This document shows positions 25,446-47,660 of a stretch of DNA of 64,000 bases, piece after piece. The position numbers and the translations under genes were made by a program. The notes below the pieces were generated by a model, which was not told the origin of the DNA, did not search any database, and was given only the letters and a program-made list of their open reading frames with translations. Numbering within the stretch: position 1 is the first letter of the stretch; every line of letters begins with the position of its first letter. The stretch is taken from positions 1 through 64,000 of IMG/VR virus record IMGVR_UViG_3300035698_009252. One strand, given 5' to 3'. Source of the DNA: a virus.

Positions 25446-25760
25446 TTATGCCACTTCGTCGTAACCTATATCTTCAGTTGTAACAATATCATCTTCAGGT
25501 GTCAAGTATTGAGCCTCAACCCATCCTCGATTGTTGGTCATCAACAAATGGTCTTCCGTACATTTTAGGACAAACCCGTTATCAAGAGTCAGCCGATATA
25601 CATCCTTGATTCCATTCCTGTGCTTTGTAATTATCGCCCTCTCTACCACATCGCCCTTGTCATTCACGCACAAAACTGAATTTGAAGCATCATGTTCGAC
25701 AATGTCCCCAATCTTCACATATCCAGAAGGAGTCAAGACCCCAACGTCGGCAGGACAACA
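25446..25760 (-). mobile_element. Split intein, N-fragment (104 aa)
   Basis: Begins CCPADVGVLT after YQEQ. Block B CTEDH, then GWVEAQYL. Confidence 0.92.
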
Positions 25761-30309: not shown

Positions 30310-31253
30310 CCTATTTCTCCTTCTTTGCCCTCTGTGGGCCTCTTTGTTGCCAGATAGTCAAGAACGGGTTTTCTAACTCCCTTTACTGCTCCCACTTTCT
30401 GTATCAAATCGTGAACATCGACAGCATCCGCCTCGAACTTCATCAGTTCTTCCGCGAATTCGTGCCCGTCAAAATCCTCTTTCGTCAAAGCCACTTCGGC
30501 GGCACCCTCTCCGAACACCTCATCATGGGGTTGCGCCGTCTTGAGCTTCACCAGGTCAAAGACCGGGGGAATGCCCTTCTCGATGTCAATAACTGCCATT
30601 GTAGGCCACCACATATCCGATATGGCCCGTCGGGCAATAGAACCGGGATTGCAGAACCACGTATCGTTCACCTCGTGCGGCTTATAGCCCATATGAAGGT
30701 CACCCGACACCACAAGGTCAAACGGGCTATCTTGAAAATCATTAGTGCTGGTCACGTCAAATGGGGCACGCTGGTTGGTAATAAGTTCGTGGCAGACAAG
30801 GATGTTGTACTTTGCCGGGTCCACCTCCCGGCCCACTCCGTTAATGTCAGCAACAGGTTCCCACTCGTGCTTCCCGTGCAGCACCACCCCATCACCCATA
30901 TCTATCGGGTTGAAAAGGATGGTGAATTGGGGGCATCGCCGGACGAAAAATGCGAGAGTCGAGGATGGGTAAGTCTTTGGGCTGTGCCCATATAGGTCAT
31001 GTTCCCCCACACAACCGTAAGTAGGAAGAGGTGATTCGCAGATGATATCCATCGCGTCGCCGATAATTTCGTAGGAAAAAACCCGGTGGGTATTGAAGAA
31101 GTCCCCGCCAAAGGCCATAAACGAACATCCGGCCTCTTCTGCTACAGCGTAAATTTCCCGAAGCTTTCCTAGGAGAGAGCGGGGGAAATCATCTACCCTG
31201 TGTTTCGGGCTGACGCCGCTCAAATGGATGTCCGTATAAAAGCCGAATCTCAT
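30306..31253 (-). CDS. sbcD: Mre11/SbcD-like metallophosphoesterase nuclease
   Basis: TDIH, GGDFF, GEHD, CH, SGDLH, NPGS. Confidence 0.85.
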   Translation of the reverse strand: MRFGFYTDIHLSGVSPKHRVDDFPRSLLGKLREIYAVAEEAGCSFMAFGGDFFNTHRVFSYEIIGDAMDIICESPLPTYGCVGEHDLYGHSPKTYPSSTLAFFVRRCPQFTILFNPIDMGDGVVLHGKHEWEPVADINGVGREVDPAKYNILVCHELITNQRAPFDVTSTNDFQDSPFDLVVSGDLHMGYKPHEVNDTWFCNPGSIARRAISDMWWPTMAVIDIEKGIPPVFDLVKLKTAQPHDEVFGEGAAEVALTKEDFDGHEFAEELMKFEADAVDVHDLIQKVGAVKGVRKPVLDYLATKRPTEGKEGEIG

Positions 31254-32861: not shown

Positions 32862-33715
32862 CGGGGTTTGGGGACTTCGGGCAAGATGTCCATCTGCTTG
32901 AGAGACTTGGCCAACCGGAGCCGGGGTATCTGGTCGAGAAGCACTTGCTCCTTTTTGCCTCGTTTCGGCTTGCTTTCAATGAAGGCTATGATGGCGTCAA
33001 TGTCGCCGTGCTCCATTACGTACTGGCAAGCCGTTTTCGGTCCCCACCCGTCCACACCAAAGATGTTATCCTTGGAGGGGCCGATTTCACCCATAAGGGC
33101 ACCCGCATCCACCCATAAGTGAGGCGCAAAGCCGAACTCCAACTCAAAACGTTGATTGCTCCAAATCTCCTTTTTCATCGCGTCATAGACAATGGTGTTG
33201 GCATCCATAATCTGCATGAAGTCCTTGTCTGTAGACACAACCACGCTGTCAGCGTCCCAGTCGGCATACGTCCGGGCATACGTGTAGATGATATCGTCCG
33301 CCTCAGCACCCGGCACCGCCACCTCAAGGCAACGCACCAGTGGCAAGCCGTACAGAAGTTCCCGCATCTGTTCCCGGAAGCTAACCATATCAGGGTCGTC
33401 CTTCTTCTCTTCCTGGGCTTCCTTGCGGGGTTGCTTATACGACGATGGGATAAGCCCAGTCTCTACGGCAGCCTGGGATTCATTCAACCGCCGCTCGTAT
33501 CCACGGTCCCAACAAATGACCCGAAAGTGTTCCGGGTACTTCTTGTGAAGGTGAATGAGTTGCCGGAAGAACCCAAAAATCATATTCACCTCCTTGCCGT
33601 GATGAGACAAGGAAGCGACAGATGTTCCATCGGGCCTTCGTTTGCGACCGGCCCAGAAGACCCGATGGGCCATGTTGTTTCCGTCAATCAGTAGTAATTT
33701 GGGGCCATTAGGCAT
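32771..33715 (-). CDS. 5'-3' exonuclease / flap endonuclease (PolA N-terminal-like)
   Basis: LLLIDGNN, EADDII, STDKDFMQ, DNIFGVDGWGPKTA. Confidence 0.93.
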   Translation of the reverse strand: MPNGPKLLLIDGNNMAHRVFWAGRKRRPDGTSVASLSHHGKEVNMIFGFFRQLIHLHKKYPEHFRVICWDRGYERRLNESQAAVETGLIPSSYKQPRKEAQEEKKDDPDMVSFREQMRELLYGLPLVRCLEVAVPGAEADDIIYTYARTYADWDADSVVVSTDKDFMQIMDANTIVYDAMKKEIWSNQRFELEFGFAPHLWVDAGALMGEIGPSKDNIFGVDGWGPKTACQYVMEHGDIDAIIAFIESKPKRGKKEQVLLDQIPRLRLAKSLKQMDILPEVPKPRCPPKDVDALKAFFLEWGFASLLKEAARLV

Positions 33716-34868
33716 CTTGCACTTCCACTACTGCTGGTGTGTCGATGGCATCCTGGTCCACAGTATCCGCTACCGGCGTCCTTGTAGGCCGCTTGACTTC
33801 CTTGCCTGCGGTTTTCTTATTGTCGACCACCGTCGGGGCATCTTTCGCCCCGCCAGCCAACAGCGCCTTGTGAGCCTCCAAAGCCGTGCGAATCTTTTCT
33901 GTCATTTTCTCGTCCTGACGCATCATGTCCAGAACGTAAGCGCGGCCCTGTCCAAGCTGTTCGCCGTCATACGAGAACCACGAACCACGCCTCACAACCA
34001 AATCGTAAGAAATGGCGTCGTCGAGAATGGCCGCAACGGTATCAATTCCAATGCCATAGGTGATACAGAACTCTGCCACCCGGAACGGAGGGGCAACCTT
34101 GTTTTTCTTCACCTCGGCCTTGGTCTTGGAGGAAACAATAACGTCCCCTTCCTTGATAACCCCCGTGCGGACAAAACGGACACGAATGGAAGCATAATGC
34201 TTGAGAGCGTGACCCGCCGGAGTTGTCTCCGGGCTGCCCCACTTTACCCCAATCTTTTCACGGACCTGATTCGTCCAGATAATTGAGGCTTGGCGACGAC
34301 CGGCTTCCGTGGTCAACCTGCGAAGGGCTGCCGACATCATACGGGCTTGTGCACCCACCTGGACGTCACCAATATCACCTTCCAGCTCTTCCTTTGTGGT
34401 CAAGGCTGCCACCGAGTCGACAACCATAAGGCCCACGCCTTGCTTGACCAGCTTGTCAAGCACGTTCAGGGCCTGAACACCGTGTTCCGGCTGATTGACG
34501 ATAAGGAAGCGGGTATCCACACCGATTGCCTGGGCATACTCCTCGTCAAAGGCATACTCCGAGTCAATGAGCCCTACGTCCTCGTTAGGAAACAGCCGTT
34601 GGTGCCCGGCAATTGCATGCAAAGCTGCCGTGGTCTTGCCTCCCATTTCCGGCCCATAGAACTCAATAAATCGGCCTTTCGGCCATCCACCGCCCGTGGC
34701 ATCATCCAACTGGGGACAACCAGACGGCCATCGGGTAATAGACACGGTATCCCGCGACCCGAGCCATGTAACAGCGTTGTGGTCTTCCCCACCAAAGTCG
34801 CCGTTGTTTATCGCCCCACATATCCGGGAGATTCTTTCTTCTCGGGTTTCTTCTTTCTTCTTAGCCAT
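33708..34868 (-). CDS. recA: RecA recombinase
   Basis: GPEMGGKTT, VVDSVAAL, QARMMSAALR, KNKVAPPF. Confidence 0.97.
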   Translation of the reverse strand: MAKKKEETREERISRICGAINNGDFGGEDHNAVTWLGSRDTVSITRWPSGCPQLDDATGGGWPKGRFIEFYGPEMGGKTTAALHAIAGHQRLFPNEDVGLIDSEYAFDEEYAQAIGVDTRFLIVNQPEHGVQALNVLDKLVKQGVGLMVVDSVAALTTKEELEGDIGDVQVGAQARMMSAALRRLTTEAGRRQASIIWTNQVREKIGVKWGSPETTPAGHALKHYASIRVRFVRTGVIKEGDVIVSSKTKAEVKKNKVAPPFRVAEFCITYGIGIDTVAAILDDAISYDLVVRRGSWFSYDGEQLGQGRAYVLDMMRQDEKMTEKIRTALEAHKALLAGGAKDAPTVVDNKKTAGKEVKRPTRTPVADTVDQDAIDTPAVVEVQDA

Positions 34869-34877
34869 AACAATTCC

Positions 34878-34910
34878 TTAAAAAGAAGGGGCAGCCCGAA
34901 GGCTGCCCCA
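34878..34910 (-). terminator. Rho-independent terminator
   Basis: GGGGCAGCC-TTCG-GGCTGCCCC followed by TTCTTTTT. Confidence 0.9.
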
Positions 34911-34913
34911 TAG

Positions 34914-35120
34914 TCACAACAACTCCACTCCGGCCTTCTCTGCGCACTTCTCGCGCAATGGGCACTCCCTGCACTCCGAGTGTTCGGGCTGAATAGTGCC
35001 AAAACACATATAGTCTTCCGGTTTTGCCTTGGAGAAGTCATAGTCAGCGCCCGGCTTGGGTGTTGCCTTTGCCTCCTCCGTAGTCGACCTCCCCTCCGGC
35101 GCGGGAGAGGCCGGAATCAG
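34914..35120 (-). CDS. -1 frame extension of SSB (68 aa, 4-Cys domain), reached by a putative frameshift
   Basis: LIPASPAPEG...YMCFGTIQPEHSECRECPLREKCAEKAGVELL*. Ends directly before the terminator. Confidence 0.7.
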   Translation of the reverse strand: MIPASPAPEGRSTTEEAKATPKPGADYDFSKAKPEDYMCFGTIQPEHSECRECPLREKCAEKAGVELL

Positions 35121-36133
35121 TTTTTTTCCGGTCCCCCTTCGACCGGCGTGCGTGTTATCTTCTTGGCGGGTACTGTCCCGGCCAACAAGGAGTCGTCATC
35201 GACCTCATCCTCGGCGACGGCGGCCTTTACGGCTGCTTCCTCGGCATCTGTCGGGGCGGCATCTGCCGGAACGGCATCTACCGGGGCACTCACGGCTGCT
35301 GGTGCTGCGGCGGGTGCTTCCTCCTCCGGGGCCTCGTTGATTTCGAGCAGGTCCCTGTAGTCGGAATGTAAGGCGTCGATGATGCGGGACACCTCAACGT
35401 ACTTGCCGCAAATGACTTTCAGGTCATGCCGCGTGAGTTGCTTTTCCTCATCCGTGAGAGGCGTCACCTTCGCCGAAGGCGGCTTCGTGTTCTTGTCAAT
35501 CACGGCCTGCGCCGAGTACGCCGTACGCGTCCCGTTGTGGCCCTTATTGACACAGATGTCCAGCCCTTCCTCCACGTCGGAGATGTCAAAGCCCATCTGG
35601 TCAAAGATGCCTTCGATGTCGTCCCACGCTTCCATGCCAATGCTGGCAATCTTGAAGCCGAGCACTTTCTGCTCGTTGCCGTCTTCCACGGACAGGACAA
35701 ACGGGTCGTCCCGGTCGAGGATGTTCCACTTCAATTGCGTGCGGGCGTTGCAATCCCGACGCAGCTTCTCGAAGATTTTCTTCTCCTCTTCGGTGCATTC
35801 GTCCTTGAGGACCTCATGGGCAATCTTGTTGAGGCGGCAAATGGGGCATCCGCCGCGCTTGCCTTCCTCCGCCTGGATATCCCAATCCAAACAGTTGATT
35901 ACCTGGGGCATCTTGTCGCTGCCCGTAAATGCCACCGGCTGGCACAACCCCCGCTCTGACCGCTTGGGTGCCGGAGCGATGAAGTGTGTCTTGGTCTCAA
36001 GGAATTCTCCCGCCAGCCGGACGATATTCTCGCCGTCCTTCCAGGTGTGAAAAATACCCCTCAACCTGCTTCCGCCGCCGCCCTTTGGACGACTAGCCCT
36101 AAGTTTCCTGATTTTATCTACTGTCGTGCTCAT
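35117..36133 (-). CDS. Single-stranded DNA-binding protein (gp32-like)
   Basis: DGENIVR, C...CPIC zinc site, G.DI.V.K...RTAY, acidic/Ala-rich tail, adjacent to recA. Confidence 0.75.
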   Translation of the reverse strand: MSTTVDKIRKLRASRPKGGGGSRLRGIFHTWKDGENIVRLAGEFLETKTHFIAPAPKRSERGLCQPVAFTGSDKMPQVINCLDWDIQAEEGKRGGCPICRLNKIAHEVLKDECTEEEKKIFEKLRRDCNARTQLKWNILDRDDPFVLSVEDGNEQKVLGFKIASIGMEAWDDIEGIFDQMGFDISDVEEGLDICVNKGHNGTRTAYSAQAVIDKNTKPPSAKVTPLTDEEKQLTRHDLKVICGKYVEVSRIIDALHSDYRDLLEINEAPEEEAPAAAPAAVSAPVDAVPADAAPTDAEEAAVKAAVAEDEVDDDSLLAGTVPAKKITRTPVEGGPEKN

Positions 36134-36140
36134 TCCTACT

Positions 36141-36190
36141 GCCTCCTTGGCCTTTATTGCCTTTTCGCCTTAACAGCGCCTACGCTGCCT
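36141..36190 (-). promoter_or_regulatory. Six-copy AGGC array in the SSB 5' leader
   Basis: GCCT at 36141, 36150, 36159, 36167, 36178 and 36187. The last copy in transcript order overlaps the SD. Confidence 0.7.
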
Positions 36191-36211
36191 CACAACTACC
36201 TACTATACTCC

Positions 36212-36856
36212 TCATCCAACCTGCCGTGCCCGATTTTTTCGGATGACCTGCCGAACTCTATCCATCCGGGATGATGATAACTCTCCCGGCGTACTCCTGC
36301 CTCCTCCTTTCTCCTTGTCGTCACCCATGATGCTTCCGCTTCCACTCCGCCGTTCATCGCTATCGATGGAGACGTACTCCCTCAACGAGAATGACTTCTG
36401 CTTCCACGCCTCGCACCACACATCCAAAGTGTCATACTCTTCCCGTGCCTTGTCTTCTCTGGCTTCCCACTTCTCAATCTCGGGCTCATTGTCCACGATA
36501 AATCGGGCTTTTACGTCTTCAACTTTGATGTTTGATTTCGCGGTTGTGCCCGACTCAACTGCTGCCTTGGCCAGCGCGTATTGCTTTTTCTCCCACCGGT
36601 CCTTGGCTCTATGGATATTGTCAAAACGCCTCTTTGCTGCTTTCTTGAGGGTGAGGAAGTATGCCATTGCTGCGGGCTGCATGGCTACGTGCTGGTCAAG
36701 CGAGCCCTTCGTTATGTCAAGAAGGTCCCGATGTGCCATTTCCAACTTGATACCGGAAAGTTCTACATCCCCCAACCCGTCACATGTCGCCGCGATATTC
36801 TTAAGTACTGTCATTCTCTGCCTCCTTGCCTTCTGTTGCCCATTTTGCCGATTCAC
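36212..36856 (-). CDS. Coiled-coil protein, possibly UvsY-like recombination mediator
   Basis: All-helical, lies upstream of SSB and recA. Confidence 0.45.
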   Translation of the reverse strand: MNRQNGQQKARRQRMTVLKNIAATCDGLGDVELSGIKLEMAHRDLLDITKGSLDQHVAMQPAAMAYFLTLKKAAKRRFDNIHRAKDRWEKKQYALAKAAVESGTTAKSNIKVEDVKARFIVDNEPEIEKWEAREDKAREEYDTLDVWCEAWKQKSFSLREYVSIDSDERRSGSGSIMGDDKEKGGGRSTPGELSSSRMDRVRQVIRKNRARQVG

Positions 36857-37526
36857 GCTCGAATGTTTCTATACGCCTTCTGAACTCACCCAATATTATA
36901 CGCTTGGAGCCGTACCCGGTGAGCAAGTTTTTTACCTCTTCGCGTTTTTTTTCGTTCCCGGCCTCTTTTGCCGTCCTCAAAAGGACACGTCCGCGACTAA
37001 TCAGAGCCATCCCCTCTTTGCGATTCAGCTCTTCGCGGTGCCGTTTCTTCATTTTGTCCCGGTTTGCAAACCTGAACTTTTCTATTACAAAATTGCTGCA
37101 CGCTTGCTTGATGTTCGGCGGACAGAACTTGGGATTTTCAATGTAAAAGTCCTCAAACGCCCACTCCAGGAACTCGTCAATGGTGAACCCATCAACCTCA
37201 AGACCCGCGACTGTCTGGTTTATCAACCGGCTATCGACAGGCGTAATGGAATGAACGTACTCGTAATCCGTAAACTGTAAATACCGGGACTTAAAGATGA
37301 CGATGAACCGTCGACGGTCCTTATCCGCCTTTTTCTTTGGAGAAATTTTGTGGGTCTCCTCAAAGACTTGCCGGTCACAAGCATCCGTCAGAAGCTCTAC
37401 GTAATGATAGATTTCCGGCACCTTGTCTATTCCCATCTGCCGAGCCAATATACAGACAGTTGTCTCGAACCCGCTAACGGGGCTCTCTGGTACCGGATTC
37501 CTCGTCTTGACATCTTTTTTGTTCAT
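36801..37526 (-). CDS. Hypothetical protein
   Basis: 241 aa. Confidence 0.6.
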   Translation of the reverse strand: MNKKDVKTRNPVPESPVSGFETTVCILARQMGIDKVPEIYHYVELLTDACDRQVFEETHKISPKKKADKDRRRFIVIFKSRYLQFTDYEYVHSITPVDSRLINQTVAGLEVDGFTIDEFLEWAFEDFYIENPKFCPPNIKQACSNFVIEKFRFANRDKMKKRHREELNRKEGMALISRGRVLLRTAKEAGNEKKREEVKNLLTGYGSKRIILGEFRRRIETFERESAKWATEGKEAENDST

Positions 37527-37959
37527 AAATGTACCGCTTGACCCTTTTTACCAGGGCATCGTCCTTGTCAAAAAGCAACGGGAGAAGGGAATCTGCGTTT
37601 CCCGACCGACGCAACATGGAAATGGCCTCCTCCCGGACAAGGCCATCCTCGGAGCTAATCATTCTTCCAAGAGCCATGGCCCCCTCTCCTCGTTCTCCAA
37701 AAACGTGAAGCATCTCCCGCAAAACGACAGAATCTTTCTCCCTTAATGCGGCATCCAGAAGAGGCGTAACATCTCCCAATTTTCCAATAATCCTCGCAAC
37801 AGCCCGACGAGTCATCGAGTCCCCCGAGCCAAAGTGCTTGGCCAAGAACTGCACGTTGACATTCTTACACCTTAACACGTCTCGGACATGCCGCTCGGAA
37901 AGGGTTCCATCAGACATGGCCCGGTCACAAGCTATCACGGCTCTCTCAGCAAATCCCAC
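37474..37959 (-). CDS. HEAT-repeat protein
   Basis: Repeats such as DSMTRRAVARIIGKLG and EDGLVREEAISML. Confidence 0.7.
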   Translation of the reverse strand: MGFAERAVIACDRAMSDGTLSERHVRDVLRCKNVNVQFLAKHFGSGDSMTRRAVARIIGKLGDVTPLLDAALREKDSVVLREMLHVFGERGEGAMALGRMISSEDGLVREEAISMLRRSGNADSLLPLLFDKDDALVKRVKRYIYEQKRCQDEESGTREPR

Positions 37960-38953
37960 GTGTAATACTCCTCAGTGCTCGCCAGAACAAATCGTCCACT
38001 TCCCCTTCAAGGTTCTTATACTCCTCAACCAGCTTTTCCTGCGTGGTAATTCCTTGTTCGTACAAAAAAGAAGCCCGGCCCTTGTTGATACCGGGGAGTC
38101 GGCACAACGGAACCAGGTGAGATGGAATCCCGCGCTTACACCTCCAGCCCAGTTCATCAAGAAAAGCGCCCTTACCCCACTTCATCACCTTGTTCAAATC
38201 ACACAATGCTTGACAAATACGCTCACTATCGCGCCTGAGTGCGAGAGCCTGATTCCGCATCTTGCCGACCGGGTGACCACCCAGAACGTACTTCCACAGT
38301 GTCGCGGTTACGAGTGTTCCCTTGGACTTTTTCAGAGCAGGAGGAATTGCGTTCCGGCACTCTTCTACAACACCCCAATACCCATCCCCGAAATCTCCGG
38401 CCATCCTGGTACAAGGAACCGTCCCCAAGGCCCATGCGACGGCCATATCATCTCCCTCCAGGCCCAGATTGAAGATGGTGTCAAAGTTATCCCTCCATGC
38501 CCAAATATCTGCCGGGTGGAAATAAAGCCGGACTGCAATCTGCCCCAAGGGAGTAATCTCTGTTTCTCGACCCTTCCGAACAACAGCCTTTACCTCCCGA
38601 AGCACCGAGAACACCTCGTCGAAATGGGGTTTTATTCCTTGTACAGACCCCAGGCTTCTCCGGTACCACGCATCCGCCGTTTTCTCATCCACAACCACTT
38701 GAGATTGTATCTCGGGTAGAACGTGAAAAGCCATTACCCCAGCATCTCCCAAGGAAGATATGACTTGGAAGCTTTCGCTGCTGTCCATCCCCTGCCGGAC
38801 ATCGTCTTCTAGTTCAGATTCAACGACAACCGTTGCGCGGCAGACGGCCCCACCATGCTTCCTGCCCCCTCGGCCCACCATCTGTTTGATTTCCGATACG
38901 GGGACAGCTTGCCTTGCACGTTTCGCCCCTACAACTATAACTCTATCTGCCAC
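37946..38953 (-). CDS. Hel308/Ski2-like helicase, C-terminal part
   Basis: GTG 38953 gives MADRVIVVG...QMVGRGGR (motif VI), then ITPLGQIAVRLY (winged helix) and LCRLPGINKGRA (HhH). Confidence 0.8.
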   Translation of the reverse strand: MADRVIVVGAKRARQAVPVSEIKQMVGRGGRKHGGAVCRATVVVESELEDDVRQGMDSSESFQVISSLGDAGVMAFHVLPEIQSQVVVDEKTADAWYRRSLGSVQGIKPHFDEVFSVLREVKAVVRKGRETEITPLGQIAVRLYFHPADIWAWRDNFDTIFNLGLEGDDMAVAWALGTVPCTRMAGDFGDGYWGVVEECRNAIPPALKKSKGTLVTATLWKYVLGGHPVGKMRNQALALRRDSERICQALCDLNKVMKWGKGAFLDELGWRCKRGIPSHLVPLCRLPGINKGRASFLYEQGITTQEKLVEEYKNLEGEVDDLFWRALRSITRGIC

Positions 38954-39381
38954 TACCAATGCCTCGATTCACCCTCTGTCATTCCCACCATGTGTTGTCC
39001 TGCTGTGGCATAGACACCGTCGGGATGGTCACTGTCGGCCCCCAAACACAATTTCTCTTGCAGGCTCTTCTTGTTGGTCTCCCGGACATTCTCGACTCTT
39101 GTCATCCTGTCCTGTGCATCACCATAGCCGATCATCCCGAAAACAAGATGGATAGGAGTTGCCCACTCCATGAGGTCTAACAGCTTCTCCCTCCACCACC
39201 ATTGCCCCCAGATACCCAGGAAGTGCCTCCAGCCGCCAATACAGCGACACCAGTACCGAAGCCGGGTATACTTCCACCAATGTGAGAAGTCGCCTTCTAC
39301 GTGCCTGTAACACCCGCAGGGGCGTTGTTCTAACAGGTCAATCCAAGCCTGGGCATTCTCTACCGGCATCCAAGGCATCAA
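38953..39381 (-). CDS. Trp-rich hypothetical protein
   Basis: Fills the space between UDG and the helicase C-part. Its TAG overlaps the GTG start. Confidence 0.5.
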   Translation of the reverse strand: MMPWMPVENAQAWIDLLEQRPCGCYRHVEGDFSHWWKYTRLRYWCRCIGGWRHFLGIWGQWWWREKLLDLMEWATPIHLVFGMIGYGDAQDRMTRVENVRETNKKSLQEKLCLGADSDHPDGVYATAGQHMVGMTEGESRHW

Positions 39382-39940
39382 GACTCTCCTTTACGACGAT
39401 TAACCCCTTCATAAACATCTTACTCTTCTCGGGATGGTTTGTGTTCACCGGACTTGGGTGAAGTAGCGGAATAATTGGGATGCCATACCGAATAGAGAGA
39501 ATCGGCTTGCCATGGTGCTTCATAATCCCATTCATGCCAGTGAGTTGCCGGAATGCCAGGGACCCCAAAGCAACAATCAGCCGAGGTTTCAGAATGGTCA
39601 CCTCCCGGTCGAGAAAGAAGCGGCAATTCTCCATCTCTGAGAGATTCGGCGGTCTATTCATCGGAGTGAAGCACCGTACGATATTGCTAACGTAAAAGTC
39701 TTTCCGAAAAAGCCCAACCTTCTCCGCAGCCTCATTGAAGAACTGGCCGGATACCCCCACAAATGGGATACCCTGTCCTACTTCGTCCCGGCCAGGATTC
39801 TGGCCAACAGCCATAACACGCGCCTGGGTGTTCATGTCAGAGAAGACATTGGACAGGTGCCCATTTATCATCTGCCCACCGACACTACACTTCTGGCAAT
39901 TGAGGCATTCGGCTTTTAGAGATTCGAGATTATCCAACAT
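39338..39940 (-). CDS. Uracil-DNA glycosylase, family 4 (Fe-S)
   Basis: CQKC, GQNPG..E, PFVG.SG, NIVRC, NRPP, HPS. Confidence 0.92.
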   Translation of the reverse strand: MLDNLESLKAECLNCQKCSVGGQMINGHLSNVFSDMNTQARVMAVGQNPGRDEVGQGIPFVGVSGQFFNEAAEKVGLFRKDFYVSNIVRCFTPMNRPPNLSEMENCRFFLDREVTILKPRLIVALGSLAFRQLTGMNGIMKHHGKPILSIRYGIPIIPLLHPSPVNTNHPEKSKMFMKGLIVVKESLDALDAGRECPGLD

Positions 39941-40835
39941 TTACTCCTGCTCCCAATGTAGAGGTACTCACTAAAACATTCAGCCCCGATGTTCTATCGT
40001 TGAACGCATCTTCCATCTTCGCCCTGACTCCACTCTTGACTGATGCGTTATGAAATGCCGCCCGAATCCCAGCACCTCTCAGCTTTTTGACGATTGATGT
40101 TCCCGTTATCTTCGAGTGCACAAACACCAAGACCTTCCCCGACGACTCCCCAACCAAACGGACGGCCTCGTTTTCTTTTTCCTGATTGTCCCCCACAGGC
40201 AAATAGTCCACTTCTATCTTTGATGGCCTCCACGAACTCACGATACATTTGGTTTGCTTCCCGTTGAGAGTCTTCACCCATCGGGCCAACTCCATCGCGT
40301 TACCCATCGTTGCCGATAGCAAAACGAGCCGGACGGATGGGTTGATAGATGTAAGTCTCATCATTGACACCTCTACGGCCCCTCCCCTGCTCTTGTCATT
40401 CATCAAATGTGCCTCGTCATAGACAACACAAGACAGGCTTCTCATCCAACTCCGATAGGCCCTAGAACGGGTCTTCGCGTCGAAAGATTCACATGTCACA
40501 ACAGCGAGCCGTGCCGCTTCGTGGTCTTCCACCCCGGAACGCGAATCGGTAGACGACAGGACAACGCCATCGCCGTTAAGCTGTGGATTGTCCTTCCACT
40601 CCTGAAACTTCTCAGAGGCCAGACTTTTGAATGGGCACACGTAGGCAACCCGGCAATCCGCCCCCGTCTGGAGGTGAAAGCCGAAGCAACACTCCGCGAG
40701 CACAGTCTTCCCCGCCGCCGTAGCGAAGGACACAACGAGATTTACATCCTCATCCAAGAATGGCACAACCGCCTGTTGCGCCACGTTGTATTCTGCGAAG
40801 GGCGGCGTATAGTAAGAGAACGCCGTCGATTTCAT
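39930..40835 (-). CDS. Hel308/Ski2-like DEAH helicase, N-terminal part
   Basis: Q motif, ATAAGKT, PFKSLASEK, DEAH, LSAT, FVHS, FHNA, STSTLGAGVN, then stop. Confidence 0.88.
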   Translation of the reverse strand: MKSTAFSYYTPPFAEYNVAQQAVVPFLDEDVNLVVSFATAAGKTVLAECCFGFHLQTGADCRVAYVCPFKSLASEKFQEWKDNPQLNGDGVVLSSTDSRSGVEDHEAARLAVVTCESFDAKTRSRAYRSWMRSLSCVVYDEAHLMNDKSRGGAVEVSMMRLTSINPSVRLVLLSATMGNAMELARWVKTLNGKQTKCIVSSWRPSKIEVDYLPVGDNQEKENEAVRLVGESSGKVLVFVHSKITGTSIVKKLRGAGIRAAFHNASVKSGVRAKMEDAFNDRTSGLNVLVSTSTLGAGVNVG

Positions 40836-41260
40836 TACGATAGAGCCGCGAGAACCTCCTCCGCCTGCTCCACAGACTCGATGGAATCAAAGATTCTCTC
40901 GTAGTCCTTTGCCTCGATTTTCACGCGCCCGGTAGCGTTAGACTCCGTCACGAGCACCATCGTCTTGCCGTCTTTGACGAAGAAGTACCCAACGGCCTGC
41001 TTCCCGACTCTATCGGAACGGTCATACTTGCCCTCAAGGCTCTTAAGCAAATGCTTCAACGGCGAAATGGGCTCTTGTTCCTCCGTCCCGGCAGGTTGGG
41101 AATCCGCAGCACTTACAGGCTCTTCTGCGACAGACTCTCCACTCTCGCGTCTACCTGTAGAACGTTCGCATTCTTTCCTGATGTAACACCCCGCGCATTC
41201 CGGCGCAGACATGTCCCACATAACCCCGAAACAATCGGGCTGTTTACCTGCTGTTTCCAT
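40835..41260 (-). CDS. Hypothetical protein with N-terminal CFG-x8-ECxxCx5C motif
   Basis: PDCFGVMWDMSAPECAGCYIRKEC. Confidence 0.65.
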   Translation of the reverse strand: METAGKQPDCFGVMWDMSAPECAGCYIRKECERSTGRRESGESVAEEPVSAADSQPAGTEEQEPISPLKHLLKSLEGKYDRSDRVGKQAVGYFFVKDGKTMVLVTESNATGRVKIEAKDYERIFDSIESVEQAEEVLAALS

Positions 41261-41269
41261 ATCTCCTCC

Positions 41270-41995
41270 TTATCTGAACCTCTTCTGCATGAACGGCTGT
41301 ACCTTCTGGTGATAGAAGTTCATTGCCGTACCCCTTCCGACTTCCGAGACCAACGCTGCATGCGCTACGCAAACCCCACCCGGTATTGTCTTATCCTCCG
41401 GGTTGCCGAGTAAAGCATATACGAACGTTTTCCACTCCGGGTATTTCTCCCCCAACTCTCGTACGGCATCGGCAAACTCGCACGACAAGATAGCCCCGTA
41501 ATGAGTCTCCTCCGCTGGCTTGCGCTCCATATCCTCATCAGGATGGGAAACCAAATGGCTCGTAAGCTTCTGCGAACGCCGGTATTCCCTGTTGAGGACG
41601 TTGGAACAAAGACGCCACGCCCAGGTCGAGAACTTAGCCCTCTTGGAATCGTAGGTGTGCAGCTTCTTCCAAATCCGCTGGAAGCACTCCTGTGCCAAGT
41701 CCTCTTGATGCTCGATACAGGTTGTGGAGTACCGCGACGCCAACATCCCGACCATGCGTTCGATAGACTTGCAGAGTGCATCCGCGAAGTATTGCCTTGC
41801 GGGGTGAGGGGGAGCCTCCCCATTACGCTCTGCCACGATGGCAGAGACCATGAACTCTTGTGTGACGGGGAATCGAGTCCCGGCTTCCGGGCAATCGCCC
41901 AGTGAGAACTCCTGGAGACGAATGTCATCCAGCCATGTTTCCAGAATCTCATTTGCTTCTTCTGTGAAGCTGCATACGGTGCCTTTACGCTCCAT
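41270..41995 (-). CDS. Phage RNA polymerase sigma factor (sigma70/ECF-like)
   Basis: Region 2 EDLAQECFQRIWKKLHTYDSKRAKFSTWAWRLCSN. Divergent region 4. Confidence 0.85.
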   Translation of the reverse strand: MERKGTVCSFTEEANEILETWLDDIRLQEFSLGDCPEAGTRFPVTQEFMVSAIVAERNGEAPPHPARQYFADALCKSIERMVGMLASRYSTTCIEHQEDLAQECFQRIWKKLHTYDSKRAKFSTWAWRLCSNVLNREYRRSQKLTSHLVSHPDEDMERKPAEETHYGAILSCEFADAVRELGEKYPEWKTFVYALLGNPEDKTIPGGVCVAHAALVSEVGRGTAMNFYHQKVQPFMQKRFR

Positions 41996-42077
41996 AGCGC
42001 CTACCTCCAGTTCGCCGATAATCGGCAGTTGTGTTTGGCCATAAATGGCCGAGCCTAGTTAGTTGCCTACAGTGGAT

Positions 42078-42116
42078 AAGTTACCCATTCATTGCCTGGG
42101 TGTCAACAAAATCTGG
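42078..42116 (-). promoter_or_regulatory. Sigma-gene promoter: motif copy 5 overlapping TTGACA-N17-TAACTT
   Basis: CCAGATTTTGTTGACACCCAGGCAATGAATGGGTAACTT. Confidence 0.65.
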
Positions 42117-42124
42117 AATAAAAA

Positions 42125-43252
42125 TTATCGTCCTCCCAGAAAAGCCGAAAAGTCGGCATTCGCAAGGTTTTTCGGGTCCTTTCCCAGTGGAACGTGGCAC
42201 CGAATCAGGGTCCCCTTCCCATAGTTTCTGCTCAACCGTTCCTGCACCCGGTCGGTAATCATGCGCCCGGCACTGTCCCCATCAAACATTAGAGCAACCC
42301 GCTTCGGGGTTATTTCCGTAATAAGTGTGAATTGTCCCTCCCCCAAATAACCGCCCAGAATAGCCACGGCATTCGGGTAGCCCTCCTGCCACAACTTCAT
42401 TACCTCCCTGGGACCTTCTGTAATGAACAAGACATCGCATCCTTTCTCGCAATCGTCAAATCCAAACAGACAACCATCCGGCATGTGAGAATGAGGCCCA
42501 CCTCCCGCTATGAAATTGTCAGCATTGACGGATTTGCGGTAATCCTTGTCCTCCTTGAGGGGGTGCTCATCCAACCACCGCTCTTTGCCAAGGATGTCGA
42601 CGGCACAGTATCCAATCACTTCTCCCTTTTGCACGAAGGGGATAATTACCCGATTCGTATACCTTCCATACGTTCTTAGGAAAATCTTGTGATGGTCAAC
42701 TGTCGCGGATTGTATGTTCGTGGGATTCTTGCCTGGGGGATGCATGAAGAACTGATAAGCCTCGGGCGGCATGTACCTGTTCCCCATATCCCTCTTCACA
42801 CTCGATAGCCCCCGCACAGCTTTTACGTCCTCCCCTTCGACCCCGTGCTCCGAATACATAGATGGAGCAATTCGCTGTCGGAATTTTTTATTCTGTGCTA
42901 ACTGAAGAGACACCTCCGAGACATCCGCATCGGTTTGCATCAAGAATTTGACTGCCTCACGAGGGTGGCAGTCAAGCATCCTGCTTGCTATCCAGACAAG
43001 GTTGCTTCCACGCCCCTCCGTGAAGCAAATGGATTCGCCCGTTTCGGTATTGACGAACCAATTCGGGTCCGAGGACTCCCGGCCAACAAACATGGCATGG
43101 TCCGGGCACTTGGCCCGAACCTCACCGCCATGAGTGGATATCTCTTCAACGCCCAGCTTGTGAAGAATGGGAATAACGTCAACCGATGGCATGAGCCAAT
43201 CGATTTTCTTATACCGCAACCGTTCCCGGACGCTGAGATTATGTTCGGACAT
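42125..43252 (-). CDS. dnaG: DNA primase (zinc-binding domain + TOPRIM)
   Basis: CPDH...CF, RVIIP, ITEG, FDGDSAG, KDP. Confidence 0.88.
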   Translation of the reverse strand: MSEHNLSVRERLRYKKIDWLMPSVDVIPILHKLGVEEISTHGGEVRAKCPDHAMFVGRESSDPNWFVNTETGESICFTEGRGSNLVWIASRMLDCHPREAVKFLMQTDADVSEVSLQLAQNKKFRQRIAPSMYSEHGVEGEDVKAVRGLSSVKRDMGNRYMPPEAYQFFMHPPGKNPTNIQSATVDHHKIFLRTYGRYTNRVIIPFVQKGEVIGYCAVDILGKERWLDEHPLKEDKDYRKSVNADNFIAGGGPHSHMPDGCLFGFDDCEKGCDVLFITEGPREVMKLWQEGYPNAVAILGGYLGEGQFTLITEITPKRVALMFDGDSAGRMITDRVQERLSRNYGKGTLIRCHVPLGKDPKNLANADFSAFLGGR

Positions 43253-43271
43253 TTCAGCCCCTCATGTGGCC

Positions 43272-44249
43272 TCAGCAGCCCGTGTAGTAACGACGGCGCA
43301 ATACCGGGTCATAAGCCGTGAACTCGTCATTCTCGTTTACGTCCTGCTCGATGAACTCGATAGCGTCCACCATATCCACATCCATACGGACGATGGACTG
43401 AAGAATAAGGGCCTCACGAGTCGCCGGAGTAACCCCATTCCCATCAAAAGACGTAACCGCGTGCAACAGCCGGATAACGACTTCCTGGCTTGGAGCGTTA
43501 CCTTGCTTGTTCAGGGCCGTAATAACCCGCTTGAGGGCCGACGAGACACGGGTCATGGTCAGGTTGTTCAGCCCGAGCAAAACACCGCGCTTGGTTTCAA
43601 CCGGGACACAATCCTGAAACTCGTAAGCATCAATAGCCCCGATGCGATACAAGAGTGACGATGCGAGGAGAATCACCTTGTCTTCGTCCTCCAGCCGATA
43701 ACCGCCCATCGTCTTCAAACACACGTCGGCAACCCGAACAGTACAGGCTAACAAGCCGCCTTGCCGCCCGTAGTGCGTTCCGATACCACCCGGCGCGACC
43801 ACAAACTTGTCGAAGAACTTGGAATTGCCATAGACTTCATCCACGAGCATACCCGCCGTTTCGTCCCCCGTCGACGTTTCCAGTTTCTTCAGCTCCTCCC
43901 GGATTTCATCGAAGCGTTCGGCGCACTGGTCCATGTCATCGTAGACTGGGATGTAGTCGGAAAGGTCGTCCGGCTGCGCCACAATCTCGATATTCTTGGC
44001 GATAATGCTCGGACTACCCATGTACTCCTCGACATTGGCCACCACGAATACCCAGTTCCCTTTCAAGAGCCCATCAATGGTTCCCCAGAACTTCACGAAC
44101 CGGGAGCCGGACTTGTCCCTCAAGACAAGGTCCAGGTAATCCTTTTGTGTTTTGGTCTGCTTGACGAACGCCTTCTCGACGTAATAGACTCCCTCAAACG
44201 TTGTCCCGATGTTTTGATGCCCGATAAGGGCATGCGCCTGTGTTGTCAT
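43272..44249 (-). CDS. YhaM/Cbf1-like OB-HD protein lacking the HD metal ligands
   Basis: OB region YLDLVLRDKSG...KFW. HD-domain scaffold GGLLACT, LLYRIG and EALILQSIVRMD with His/Asp replaced. Confidence 0.75.
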   Translation of the reverse strand: MTTQAHALIGHQNIGTTFEGVYYVEKAFVKQTKTQKDYLDLVLRDKSGSRFVKFWGTIDGLLKGNWVFVVANVEEYMGSPSIIAKNIEIVAQPDDLSDYIPVYDDMDQCAERFDEIREELKKLETSTGDETAGMLVDEVYGNSKFFDKFVVAPGGIGTHYGRQGGLLACTVRVADVCLKTMGGYRLEDEDKVILLASSLLYRIGAIDAYEFQDCVPVETKRGVLLGLNNLTMTRVSSALKRVITALNKQGNAPSQEVVIRLLHAVTSFDGNGVTPATREALILQSIVRMDVDMVDAIEFIEQDVNENDEFTAYDPVLRRRYYTGC

Positions 44250-44252
44250 CCT

Positions 44253-44303
44253 GCCTCCTTAGCCTAGTTTTGTGCCAACATTGCCAACATTGCCCGCATT
44301 GCC
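44253..44303 (-). promoter_or_regulatory. Six-copy GGC array in the 5' leader of the YhaM-like gene
   Basis: GCC at 44253, 44262, 44274, 44283, 44292 and 44301. Includes GGCAATG x3. Confidence 0.7.
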
Positions 44304-44322
44304 TTATTATACACTCCAGCCC

Positions 44323-45909
44323 CTATCCGGTGTTGCCCTTTTTTGCCCGAATCTGTCGGATTTTGGATATCATCGTAAAGGAAGCCTTCCTGTGCTCCAT
44401 GGGAATCTGGTCCAGCACCTGGGGTGGCTCTTTTTCCGGGGCAACAACCCCGTCAGCGTCGTCCTGAATCGCAGAAGCCACCTCCGCCGCCTGGGAGTCA
44501 TCCGCGACTCCCCCATCCTTCTGAATGAGATTTTCGGCATCGGCCTCGTTTTTCGGGTCGCCCTTTGCCCCTTCGCCTGGGATTTCCTCAATTCTGCCGA
44601 TTCTTACGCGATGCTTGGCCCGATACCAGAAGGGAGGCCCATCACGATTCTTCTTAACATCACACAGCCAATACACATCCCGCTCCCATTCCTGCCGGTC
44701 AACCTGTTTCTCATCCTTGCCGGTTTCGGTAATGAGCATGAATGTATTAGCCACATGCACTTGGGCCTTGGAGCCGTATACGTCCAGCCTATTTCCTCGT
44801 TTTCCACGCTCCTGTTTCTTCATCACCTCTGTTGCGGCCTGGGTCGGGACAAGAACCGGTAAGCGCAACATACGAGCCAGCTCCTTACAATCGGCAGCCG
44901 CCTTCTTCTGCTCATCGTTCTCTCCCCACGTCTTCTCGATAGGCTTTACGTTAGGCAGATGGTCAATGATGATGAGTCCAATCTTGATGCCTCGGGCTTC
45001 ACACTGCCTGTATGCCTGTTCCGCAAGCGTAATCTCGGTAAACGCAGGAACCTCTTTGATGAAAACACGGCCATGTTTCCAGCTCTGCATAAACCTGCGC
45101 CACTTCTCAAGGTTCTCGTCTGTAATCTCGCCACGCTTGAAGTCCAGATACGGAATCTCCGTGAAGTTTGCATCAAATTTGTGCTCAACTTGCTCCAAGT
45201 ATTCCTCATTAGCCACGTGGAGAACATTTGCTCCAGGATTGAGCATGACCACGTTCATTTCCACTTGCCGAACGAACGTAGATTTCCCGGTACCGGTAAG
45301 CCCGGCAACAAGGGTCAACTCCCCTGGGAATAGTCCTCCCGTCGTATTGTCGAACATGTCGAAGCCAGTCGCCAGGCCCTTGTACTTGTCCGGGTTTTTC
45401 CTCTTATCCAGAAGCGTTTGCTCCCGCTTCTTATAGTCCGTCAACTCTACCAACGGCCTCTCATCCTTGACCCCACTGATAGCAAGAGACTGTCTCTTAA
45501 GAAGGGTCAATGCATCTGCTATCTGCCCTCCCTCAAGAAGAACGTCGACATTCGCCCCGAGCTTCAGGATTTCGCGCCCCGTATCTGCCTCTTCCAACTT
45601 TTGAAGAAGCACCTCTGGTGGGTCTTGCGTCGTTACACCATCAACAAGATTCCATTCCCCAATGAAATACTGCTGGTCACTACCCTCTACCCGCTTTCCC
45701 ACCTCATACTCAAACACCTTCTTGGTTGCTAATTGGCCCGCTGTGTTAATAGACGAGGTTAACACCTCTAGAATGAACTTCCGTTCCACGCTTGTGAAAA
45801 GGTTTTCCTTAACACGGTGAATATAGCGTCGAGACTGAATGACGCTTGTGATAAGAATCTTGAGTAAAGAGCGCTCAAGTTCAACGGTGTAGTCAAATGA
45901 TGTAGGCAT
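44323..45909 (-). CDS. dnaB: Replicative DNA helicase, DnaB-like
   Basis: TGF..FD..TGGLFPGEL, GLTGTGKS, IIIDHL, PTQ, KKNRDGP. Confidence 0.9.
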   Translation of the reverse strand: MPTSFDYTVELERSLLKILITSVIQSRRYIHRVKENLFTSVERKFILEVLTSSINTAGQLATKKVFEYEVGKRVEGSDQQYFIGEWNLVDGVTTQDPPEVLLQKLEEADTGREILKLGANVDVLLEGGQIADALTLLKRQSLAISGVKDERPLVELTDYKKREQTLLDKRKNPDKYKGLATGFDMFDNTTGGLFPGELTLVAGLTGTGKSTFVRQVEMNVVMLNPGANVLHVANEEYLEQVEHKFDANFTEIPYLDFKRGEITDENLEKWRRFMQSWKHGRVFIKEVPAFTEITLAEQAYRQCEARGIKIGLIIIDHLPNVKPIEKTWGENDEQKKAAADCKELARMLRLPVLVPTQAATEVMKKQERGKRGNRLDVYGSKAQVHVANTFMLITETGKDEKQVDRQEWERDVYWLCDVKKNRDGPPFWYRAKHRVRIGRIEEIPGEGAKGDPKNEADAENLIQKDGGVADDSQAAEVASAIQDDADGVVAPEKEPPQVLDQIPMEHRKASFTMISKIRQIRAKKGNTG

Positions 45910-47660
45910 TAGAGAAGTTTAGCCAAATCTTTAGGGCCAAGCCGTCGCAAAACCGCATCTTCGGTATTGTCGCCAAGGACTTGAGCCGTGACCCTGTTTT
46001 TATGATAGATGACAGACCTGATACGCTCTTCAATCGTATTCCGGCAAACGAAATTCACCACAGTGACAACCTCTTTCTGTCCGATTCGATGCGCCCGGTC
46101 CTCCCTCTGAGACATAATCGAGGGGGACCAGAAATCATCATAGTTGATAACGTAACTCGCAGCTTGAAGATTCAATCCGGTAGACATCGCATCTGTGCCA
46201 ACCATCATATCGATAGCCAGGTCATCCTTAAAAGTGGCCTGCATATCGGCCCGCTCTTTCTTCGGAGTATCACCATCAATTCTAAGGTAATTCAGACCCA
46301 TGTCATGCATCAAAACCACAAGGATGTCCAGCATCCCCTTATATTGACTGAAAAGTAGGGCTTTGTTCCCATTATGGAGTACTATTTCTTCCAGAATTTC
46401 CTTCAAAGCATCCATCTTTGAGGTTTTCTTGCAAGTGTCATCCACCATTGCCGGGTAGTTACAAAACTGCTTACACCGGATAAGGGCGACGATGGCCTGG
46501 GCATCCTCGGTTGCCTTGTGGCCACCATCAGCAATGGCTTTGTATATCTTCCGCTCCGCCGGGGACAAGAGCACTATACGGTTCTCGTAAATCTTGTCCG
46601 GCAAGTCCTTAAGCACCTCTTTCTTCATACGTCGAATGAAAAACGGCTGAATACGCTCTGTTACTTCGCCCAGCCGCCTATACCCTGTCACCTTGCCCCA
46701 GAAATCAGTTTCCACATGCCGTTGGAAGAAACGGGTTTTTGAGCCAAGAAGTCCGGGAGCTACCCAATCCATGATACTGTGCAGCTCCTCCAGCTTGCCA
46801 TCCATAGGTGTGCCTGTCAGCGCCATTCTAAAATGCGACCGGAGCCTCTTCACATTCCGGGTGCGCTTGGAGGCATGGTTTCTGATAGCCTGCGCCTCGT
46901 CCACGGCCACGAAATCCCACATTCGCCTGCGAACTGCCCCAAGAATTCTACCCCTTTTCTCCGCTGCCGCCTTCATTTTGAGTTTCCGAGCAACCACTTC
47001 CGGCTTGTCGGACTTCTTTGGTTCGTAATTACGGCCCCCAAAGAGGTCCTCCAGAATCAGTTCGAAGTTGACCACGTAGAAAAACACGTCATCCCGAAGC
47101 CACTGTGCGATGCGCTCGTCCGGGGAGCCGTCAATCACTACATACTTCTCATTCGTGAATTTCTCTATCTCTAGGGGCCAGTTGTACTTAAGGGAAGCCG
47201 GGGTGATGCACAAGGCATTACGGGCCATCCCCTTGTCCTTCAGGTAGAGAGCCGTGGCAAGGGCCTGGAGAGTTTTCCCCAGTCCCATTTCGTCGGAATT
47301 AAGGACACCGGTGCCATTGATGATGGCGAACATGATACCATAACGCTGGTAGTTGTACGGGGAGCCGGTCAGCCCCGGCACTCGGAGCCGAATGGGAACG
47401 TCCTGCTTGGACATCTGGTGGAGCCGAATCAGGTGGGCCTCTTTCCCTTCCTGGACCTTGACATGCTCTTCGATATCCGGGGCAACCCCCACGGATGGCA
47501 TGTGTTTCAAAAGGAAACGAAGGTTATAGAGGGTAAATGTGATGCGCCAAACCTTCGATATGGGGTCCCAGTGTCCCCCGATATCGCTAACGATTTTGCG
47601 CTCGTCGTAACAATCCTCTATGACAATTGTGTTGGCACCATCGACGGACAAATACGGCAT
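45909..47660 (-). CDS. SNF2-family helicase with N-terminal HARP-like domain
   Basis: DEMGLGKT, DEAQ, LTGTP, FSQY, GLNLQAA, QREDRAHRIGQ. Confidence 0.93.
   Translation of the reverse strand: MPYLSVDGANTIVIEDCYDERKIVSDIGGHWDPISKVWRITFTLYNLRFLLKHMPSVGVAPDIEEHVKVQEGKEAHLIRLHQMSKQDVPIRLRVPGLTGSPYNYQRYGIMFAIINGTGVLNSDEMGLGKTLQALATALYLKDKGMARNALCITPASLKYNWPLEIEKFTNEKYVVIDGSPDERIAQWLRDDVFFYVVNFELILEDLFGGRNYEPKKSDKPEVVARKLKMKAAAEKRGRILGAVRRRMWDFVAVDEAQAIRNHASKRTRNVKRLRSHFRMALTGTPMDGKLEELHSIMDWVAPGLLGSKTRFFQRHVETDFWGKVTGYRRLGEVTERIQPFFIRRMKKEVLKDLPDKIYENRIVLLSPAERKIYKAIADGGHKATEDAQAIVALIRCKQFCNYPAMVDDTCKKTSKMDALKEILEEIVLHNGNKALLFSQYKGMLDILVVLMHDMGLNYLRIDGDTPKKERADMQATFKDDLAIDMMVGTDAMSTGLNLQAASYVINYDDFWSPSIMSQREDRAHRIGQKEVVTVVNFVCRNTIEERIRSVIYHKNRVTAQVLGDNTEDAVLRRLGPKDLAKLL

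Follow-up and report, generated by a model that had tools for sequence, protein, structure and literature searches.

To our knowledge, experimental evidence for translational self-control of a single-stranded DNA-binding protein (SSB) through a repeat-rich mRNA leader comes essentially from T4-like phages only. In T4, autorepression by gp32 involves a 5' pseudoknot followed by more than 40 nt of unstructured RNA with several UUAAA or UAAA repeats, in which the ribosome-binding site is included (PMC535899). This operator sits in the gap before gene 32, and the specificity of cooperative binding is attributed to its repeats; in RB49 the repeats are kept and the pseudoknot apparently is not (PMC535899). 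On binding, gp32 occludes a site of about 7 nt (PMC10484735). The window analyzed here, a stretch of 64,000 nt, is the first 64 kb of the 139.6-kb IMG/VR viral contig IMGVR_UViG_3300035698_009252, which comes from a giant phage, as the 139.6 kb are estimated to be only ~43% complete. Three genes in this window, encoding a gp32-like SSB, a candidate UvsY-like protein (gene X) and a homologue of the YhaM/Cbf1 exonucleases, carry periodic arrays of GGC units in their leaders. They are genuine cis-elements, conserved and reaching into the ribosome-binding site, and the best general reading is that of a translational operator whose RNA-binding partner acts cooperatively or at several sites.

In this phage, the YhaM-like and SSB leaders each hold six GGC units on the minus strand (Table 1). 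An earlier interpretation of the window, made from the DNA letters without database searches (hereafter the sequence-only reading), had reported both arrays at these positions, with the SSB spacings listed in reverse of their 5' to 3' order. It had also correctly recognized the common end of the two arrays, the 14-mer GGCYAAGGAGGCAG, which has no other copy in the 139.6-kb contig and places the sixth unit within the Shine-Dalgarno (SD) sequence, AAGGAGGCAG. On the coding strand, the YhaM-like leader runs TATAAT-AA-GGCAATGCG-GGCAATGTT-GGCAATGTT-GGCACAAAACTA-GGCTAAGGA-GGCAGG-ATG, its first three units being tandem copies of GGCAATGYK. The SSB leader runs TATAGT-N12-GGCAGCGTA-GGCGCTGTTAA-GGCGAAAA-GGCAATAAA-GGCCAAGGA-GGCAGTAGGA-ATG; the array spans 49 nt directly 5' of the start codon, and its units 1 and 2 fall in a small 7-bp hairpin (GGCAGCG-UAGG-CGCUGUU). 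A third array, missed by the sequence-only reading, precedes gene X in the form GGCAAAATG-GGCAACAGAA-GGCAAGGA-GGCAGAGA-ATG, overlaps the last codons of the open reading frame (ORF) 36801-37526 and ends in GGCAAGGAGGCAG.

The mean frequency of GGC on the coding strand is 1.26 per 53 nt, and a count of 6 is reached at only six places in the window. Four runs of at least six units with 6-12-nt spacing exist in the 139.6 kb. Two of them are the SSB and YhaM-like leaders; coding sequence holds the remaining two, one of which is in the complement of a Gly/Ser-type coding repeat. Beyond the window, on the plus strand at contig positions 102565-102687, 17 GGC units follow a 6-12-nt period; this run is the complement of a Gly/Ser-type coding repeat and is unrelated to the leader arrays. 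Two shorter runs were also seen on the minus strand. Three units, GGCAACAAAGA-GGCCCACAGAG-GGCAAAGAAGGAG, stand at 30313-30351 before gene 29005-30309, which adjoins a calcineurin-like phosphoesterase gene (Pfam Metallophos) and encodes a 434-aa product with no family assigned; this run may belong to the array set as a weak fourth case, or be due to chance. At the junction of the YhaM-like and primase genes (43253-43290), three GGC with 9- and 12-nt spacing, GGCTGCTGA-GGCCACATGAGG-GGCTGAA-ATG, cover the YhaM-like stop codon and the primase start.

About 90 related metagenomic loci (labelled L0nn) were gathered through alignment-based scans and compared. Metagenomic homologues of the SSB and of the YhaM-like protein number more than 120 each, at 45-80% identity, and GGC is the top over-represented trinucleotide in the orthologous leaders of both genes (70 seen against 16 expected for SSB, 99 against 32 for the YhaM-like gene). 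Periodic GGC leaders, which the sequence-only reading had proposed to look for on orthologues, do occur there. The consensus unit is (A/G)GGCAA, with a spacing peak at 8-10 nt and a range of 7-12 nt. Array-bearing relatives share just 50-80% SSB identity, range from 40 to 64% in GC content and have spacers that are unrelated between lineages. Among the unique leaders of all fetched loci, runs of at least four units occur in 4 of 18 for SSB, 5 of 57 for the YhaM-like gene, 2 of 19 for gene X and 2 of 766 for other genes (Fisher p = 3e-6, 2.5e-5 and 3e-3 for SSB, YhaM-like and X, values that are indicative only, the sequences being related), and all runs of at least five units belong to these three families. 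When 25 distinct genomes are considered, at least four GGC are found in the leader of SSB in 16 of 25, of X in 6 of 25 and of the YhaM-like gene in 3 of 22. The SSB leader is therefore the most constant carrier of the array.

The number of units varies from 0 to 8 between relatives; a correspondence of six units to six subunits of a binding protein was considered and rejected on account of this variation. SSB leaders carry six units in L021, in L025 and in L004/L012, a phage of 46% GC, and seven in L030, where the period is 8 nt and five of the units are GGCAACTA. Leaders of gene X hold 7-8 units in L021, six in L025, four in L006 and 2-3 in L004, L026, L031 and L082. Arrays before the YhaM-like gene are found in a minority, with six units in L006/L033/L061, five in L043/L063, five to six in L040 and four in L037 and L036; the closest relatives have none (L011) or three (L014) in this leader, and both have five before SSB. 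Tandem expansion of units is seen in GGCAATGYK x3 in this phage, in the GGCAACTA run of L030 and in GGCTTGTTTTG x3 of L055.

Several features bear on whether the arrays act in the mRNA or in the DNA. The motif always lies in the sense orientation, and its last unit abuts or overlaps the SD sequence in every case. The leaders are 71% purine and not significantly structured, with folding z-scores of -1.35 to +0.63 relative to shuffled sequence. In five relatives (L021, L025, L015, L030, L058), the SSB array lies in the intercistronic gap between X and SSB with no -10 element within ~110 nt, and the spacing of 7-12 nt is variable and off the DNA helical repeat. Sense orientation, SD position, purine-rich unstructured leaders, promoterless gaps and off-helix spacing together favor action on the RNA, as judged from these sequence features. 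A caveat to this reading is that all three arrays in this phage follow a TATAAT-like element by 10-50 nt. A scan of 33000-46000 against Rfam gave just one match, a below-threshold chance match to a long non-coding RNA.

These TATAAT-like elements are themselves partly conserved. A G-TATAAT stands 45-60 nt before the YhaM-like start codon in nearly all orthologous loci, and a TATAAT-like element occupies the equivalent SSB position in L014, L011, L006, L026, L052 and L004. Within the 3' part of ORF 36801-37526, TATAAT coincides with two Ile codons and is kept at the nucleotide level, in the same place, in L025, L011, L015, L008, L091, L093 and L062; it is a candidate element, embedded in coding sequence, that probably serves X and SSB as an internal promoter. 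The elements before the leaders had been described as extended -10 promoters, a description that does not hold, since they are not canonical TGnTATAAT; they read TATAAT or TATAGT, have a G conserved at -13 and lack a -35 match. For the coding strand of the SSB and YhaM-like leaders, a scan with the sigma-70 consensus gave no promoter with both -35 and -10 elements. The suggestion that GGCAATG matches a promoter box likewise found no support. This heptamer is enriched on the coding strand (25 seen, ~6 expected), and most copies are apparently intragenic, judging from their coordinates without tabulation.

The SSB has a basic N-terminus, a Cys/His cluster and an acidic Ala/Pro-rich tail. It matches PHROG 1192 (SSB; E value 3.3e-10), and one homologue carries Pfam PF08804 (gp32); the protein itself has no Pfam match at E values up to 10, and a sequence search of the PDB gave matches to its low-complexity tail only. 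Its AlphaFold model (mean predicted local distance difference test score, pLDDT, of 81) finds the RB69 and T4 gp32 cores as best PDB matches (E values 2.5e-5 to 1e-4, probability 1.0), so the predicted structure identifies the SSB as gp32-like by fold. Gene X lies directly upstream of SSB in all relatives and has no sequence-family match. Its model (pLDDT 77) is a long helical hairpin for which the top PDB matches in Foldseek are all T4 UvsY (template-modelling score up to 0.72 by target, probability 1.0, E value only 0.1), which makes its product a candidate UvsY-like recombination mediator.

The best-supported proposal, tentative and held at somewhat less than an even chance, is that the arrays are RNA-level translational operators bound cooperatively by the gp32-like SSB, with the SSB mRNA as core target, by analogy to gene 32 of T4. 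In this scheme, free SSB in excess of single-stranded DNA (ssDNA) would bind the leaders cooperatively, with about one monomer per 8-10-nt unit; register and specificity would come from the GGCAA cores, and the resulting filament would cover the ribosome-binding site and turn translation off. The SSB mRNA would be the core, ancestral target. In some lineages, including this phage, tandem duplication would have carried the repeat code over to the leaders of the UvsY-like gene and of the YhaM-like/primase operon, and the output of these genes would then track the free-SSB pool. The sequence-only reading had mentioned SSB as an alternative ligand; it appears to fit better than a YhaM-like ring because of the T4 gene 32 precedent and because no other leader carries the array as constantly as that of SSB. 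The repeat period of 8-10 nt is also close to the ~7-nt occluded site of gp32, and no homologue of CsrA (PF02599) or RegA was found in the 139.6-kb contig.

A number of points weigh against the SSB as ligand. Its assignment rests on analogy and on the most-conserved leader. T4 gp32 regulates its own mRNA alone and its operator needs the 5' pseudoknot as a nucleation site, whereas no conserved 5' structure was found in these leaders, the local hairpin occurring in this phage only; pseudoknots are beyond the prediction of the folding tool, which makes their absence a weak negative. The commonest period, 8-10 nt, is larger than the 7-nt site of T4 gp32. Proteins of the gp32 type are thought to be largely sequence-independent, and a GGC-specific register is left unexplained by this. 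A few distant relatives (L085/L062, L013, L091 and L018) have all three genes and no arrays. Finally, with the contig ~43% complete, another RNA-binding regulator could be encoded elsewhere.

Such a regulator, a different RNA-binding protein of the phage or its host, might read the GGCAA units with a CsrA-like logic and co-regulate the SSB, UvsY-like and YhaM-like/primase genes. A short multi-copy motif with its last copy at the SD sequence is typical of dedicated regulators and not of non-specific SSBs, and, in addition to the missing part of the genome, many genes of the module have no assigned function. However, neither the CsrA nor the RegA family is matched in the contig, while the regular 8-10-nt phasing with up to 8 units suits a cooperative lattice binder and the set of targets is centered on SSB; on balance, this possibility is unlikely, if still of some weight. 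A ring or oligomer of the HD-degenerate YhaM-like protein, whose OB folds would sit on the GGC units and repress its own operon, SSB and X, was the explanation preferred by the sequence-only reading, and it now appears improbable. The protein is the only nearby candidate for a ring-forming RNA-binding protein, and its own leader has six units both here and in L006/L033/L061. It aligns nearly full length to YhaM/Cbf1 (PDB 9o7t, residues 11-296, E value 5.4e-5, phmmer), and some of its homologues carry Pfam PF01336 and the JGI annotation YhaM; it has itself no Pfam (E value up to 10) or PHROG match. From this alignment it is a YhaM/Cbf1 homologue with the OB-fold and HD-domain architecture. Trp55 and Tyr76 of the OB fold are invariant in the family alignment, as is Arg202, which stands at the aspartate position of the HD motif (YR in this phage). 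The description as a nuclease-dead YhaM homologue is thus borne out as far as homology and loss of the HD aspartate go; the loss is family-wide (Arg or Lys in 49 of 49 unique relatives, arrays present or not) and not linked to the arrays. The Bacillus subtilis YhaM is indeed a hexamer (a trimer of dimers), as the sequence-only reading had stated, but it prefers ssDNA and binds single-stranded RNA only weakly, and with its HD motif mutated (H193A/D194A) it forms dimers almost exclusively (PMC12107432). Unit number in the arrays, at 0-8, shows no fixed six, and the YhaM-like leader is arrayless in most relatives, with 0 and 3 units in the closest ones, where SSB leaders keep their arrays. The SSB and YhaM-like genes are both present, and syntenic, in every relative with enough flank, so presence or absence cannot separate the two as ligands. 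What is supported of the earlier proposal is its general form, a translational operator over the SD sequence, and not the YhaM-like protein as its reader. If the YhaM-like reading were true, an exonuclease scaffold would have turned into an RNA-wrapping translational repressor in a widespread uncultivated giant-phage lineage, setting the levels of SSB, a recombination mediator and the primosome. The gene lies between those of the DnaB-type helicase and the primase, so that this protein more likely handles ssDNA during replication in a non-catalytic role.

The two other explanations dispense with a protein bound to the mRNA. The purine-rich repeats, having arisen by slippage, might simply keep the leaders of highly expressed replication proteins open, so that these leaders enhance translation or offer ribosomes a standby site, with no dedicated repressor. 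The leaders are A/G-rich and without significant structure and the tandem duplication of units is plain, all of which suits such a role. It leaves unexplained, however, why GGC is conserved while the spacers drift, why the spacing holds at 8-10 nt and why long runs are confined to three gene families among ~860 leaders; the remaining leaders of the contig are also without runs, two four-unit runs excepted. This explanation is accordingly rated as quite unlikely, although not to the same degree as a DNA-level element, to which only a slight chance is given. The latter would be an iteron-like operator or origin element, or an origin that directly follows a promoter and is prone to R-loops. Origins of T4 pair a promoter with a downstream unwinding element, direct repeats near replication genes recall iterons, and all three arrays in this phage stand shortly after a TATAAT-like element. 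Yet the motif core is just 3-5 nt, and the variable off-helix spacing, the constant sense orientation, the SSB arrays that lack a promoter in several relatives and the last unit that always abuts the SD sequence all speak against an element in the DNA.

The arrays belong to a replication and recombination module (Pfam, PHROG) in which all genes are on the minus strand (Table 1). Its order is SNF2 helicase, DnaB-type helicase, YhaM-like gene, primase, sigma-like gene, DEAD-box helicase, uracil-DNA glycosylase (UDG) and others, followed by ORF 36801-37526, gene X, SSB, RecA and a 5'-3' exonuclease, so that the UvsY-like, gp32-like and RecA genes stand consecutively. A gap of 19 nt separates the YhaM-like gene from the primase gene behind it, and the two are probably co-transcribed. 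The relatives conserve the order YhaM-like gene, primase, ~7 kb, and then X and SSB. A DNA similarity search of 50,697 phage records found no deposited phage DNA resembling the contig, and a tblastn search with the SSB found no match among deposited phages; the YhaM-like protein gave one weak match there, to an unannotated fecal phage fragment.

Table 1. Positions of the GGC arrays, promoter-like elements and neighboring genes in the window (spacings in nt, 5' to 3' for arrays 1 and 2).
Feature	Position	Strand	Description
DnaB-type helicase	44323-45909	minus	
-10 element TATAAT	44306-44311	minus	context GTGTATAAT; promoter of the YhaM-like and primase genes
GGC array 1, YhaM-like leader	44253-44303	minus	six units, spacings 9, 9, 9, 12, 9
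YhaM/Cbf1-like protein	43272-44249	minus	OB fold and degenerate HD domain (HD to YR); PDB sequence search
DnaG-type primase (Toprim)	42125-43252	minus	Pfam Toprim_4, E value 2.7e-10; PHROG 47 (DNA primase), E value 3.9e-22
Sigma-like gene	41270-41995	minus	
TATAAT in 3' part of ORF 36801-37526	36895-36900	minus	Ile-Ile codons ATA-ATA, motif IILGEF
GGC array 3, gene X leader	36815-36849	minus	four units, spacings 9, 10, 8
Gene X	36212-36814	minus	200 aa; predicted long helical hairpin, candidate UvsY-like
-10-like TATAGT ahead of SSB leader	36202-36207	minus	
GGC array 2, SSB leader	36141-36189	minus	six units, spacings 9, 11, 8, 9, 9
gp32-like SSB	35117-36133	minus	PHROG, fold match
RecA homologue, downstream of SSB	33708-34868	minus	Pfam RecA, E value 3.6e-80

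Other features of the window were noted in passing, all on the minus strand. In the leader of the sigma-like gene (42014-42050), GGCCATTTATGGCC (42037-42050) and GCCGATTATCGGC (42014-42026) are small palindromes or hairpins that are kept before orthologues; the pattern GCCG[AG]N2-5[CT]CGGC is matched in 18 of 36 unique leaders, and in others two-sided changes preserve the pairing (GTCGAtatTCGAC; CACCGATTATCGGTA). These palindromes may form a hairpin in the RNA, or a dimeric protein may bind them in the DNA. The DNA polymerase III alpha-type gene at 25446-28256 encodes PHP, NTPase and finger domains, and its C-terminal end has a below-threshold Pfam match to intein splicing (E value 1.2e-6, 28.8 bits, cut-off 35.8); the gene may be split or interrupted by an intein. 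Similarly, 39930-40835 and 37946-38959 match positions 23-302 and 585-627 of PHROG 6819 (branch-migration helicase), with the UDG gene and small ORFs between them, and may be parts of a split or interrupted helicase gene.

When compared with described systems, the arrays share features with several of them. TRAP reads 9-11 (G/U)AG triplets separated by 2-3 nt. Like the targets of TRAP and HutP, the leaders described here present periodic short triplets on single-stranded RNA that overlap the SD sequence, which is the multi-site logic put forward by the sequence-only reading, but compared with TRAP sites their units are 7-12 nt apart (mostly 8-10) and vary in number from 0 to 8. Leaders controlled by CsrA/RsmA also carry several short G-rich motifs with the last one at the SD sequence; the motif here is GGC(AA) and not A(N)GGA, it is regularly phased with up to 8 units, and the search of the incomplete contig found no CsrA gene. 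On the protein side, the YhaM-like product resembles the YhaM/Cbf1 exonucleases in its near-full-length alignment and in keeping the OB-fold Trp and Tyr, and differs from them in that its family has Arg or Lys for the HD aspartate and in that it lacks a Pfam match.

The closest likeness is to the gene 32 operators of T4 and RB69. In both cases the element is the leader of a gp32-fold SSB, located in the gap before the SSB gene, with at least 40 nt of no significant predicted structure and a repeated 4-5-nt element that extends into the ribosome-binding site at a period near the SSB site size of ~7 nt. The differences are equally clear. The repeat is (A/G)GGCAA here and UUAAA or UAAA there, no conserved 5' pseudoknot was found here, the upstream gene is UvsY-like here and gp59 there, and the array is present here on up to two further mRNAs (UvsY-like and YhaM-like/primase). 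A distant, uncultivated giant-phage lineage thus has a different repeat, GGCAA instead of UUAAA, that is conserved across 40-64% GC, and it is unusual in its G/C-containing sequence register and in its seeming spread to partner genes. If the SSB is the ligand, gp32-type proteins would be able to read a sequence register on RNA, and a single sensor of free SSB could balance the stoichiometry of several ssDNA-handling proteins. Unit number (0-8) and spacing vary naturally between relatives, which provides a ready series for relating lattice phasing to repression.

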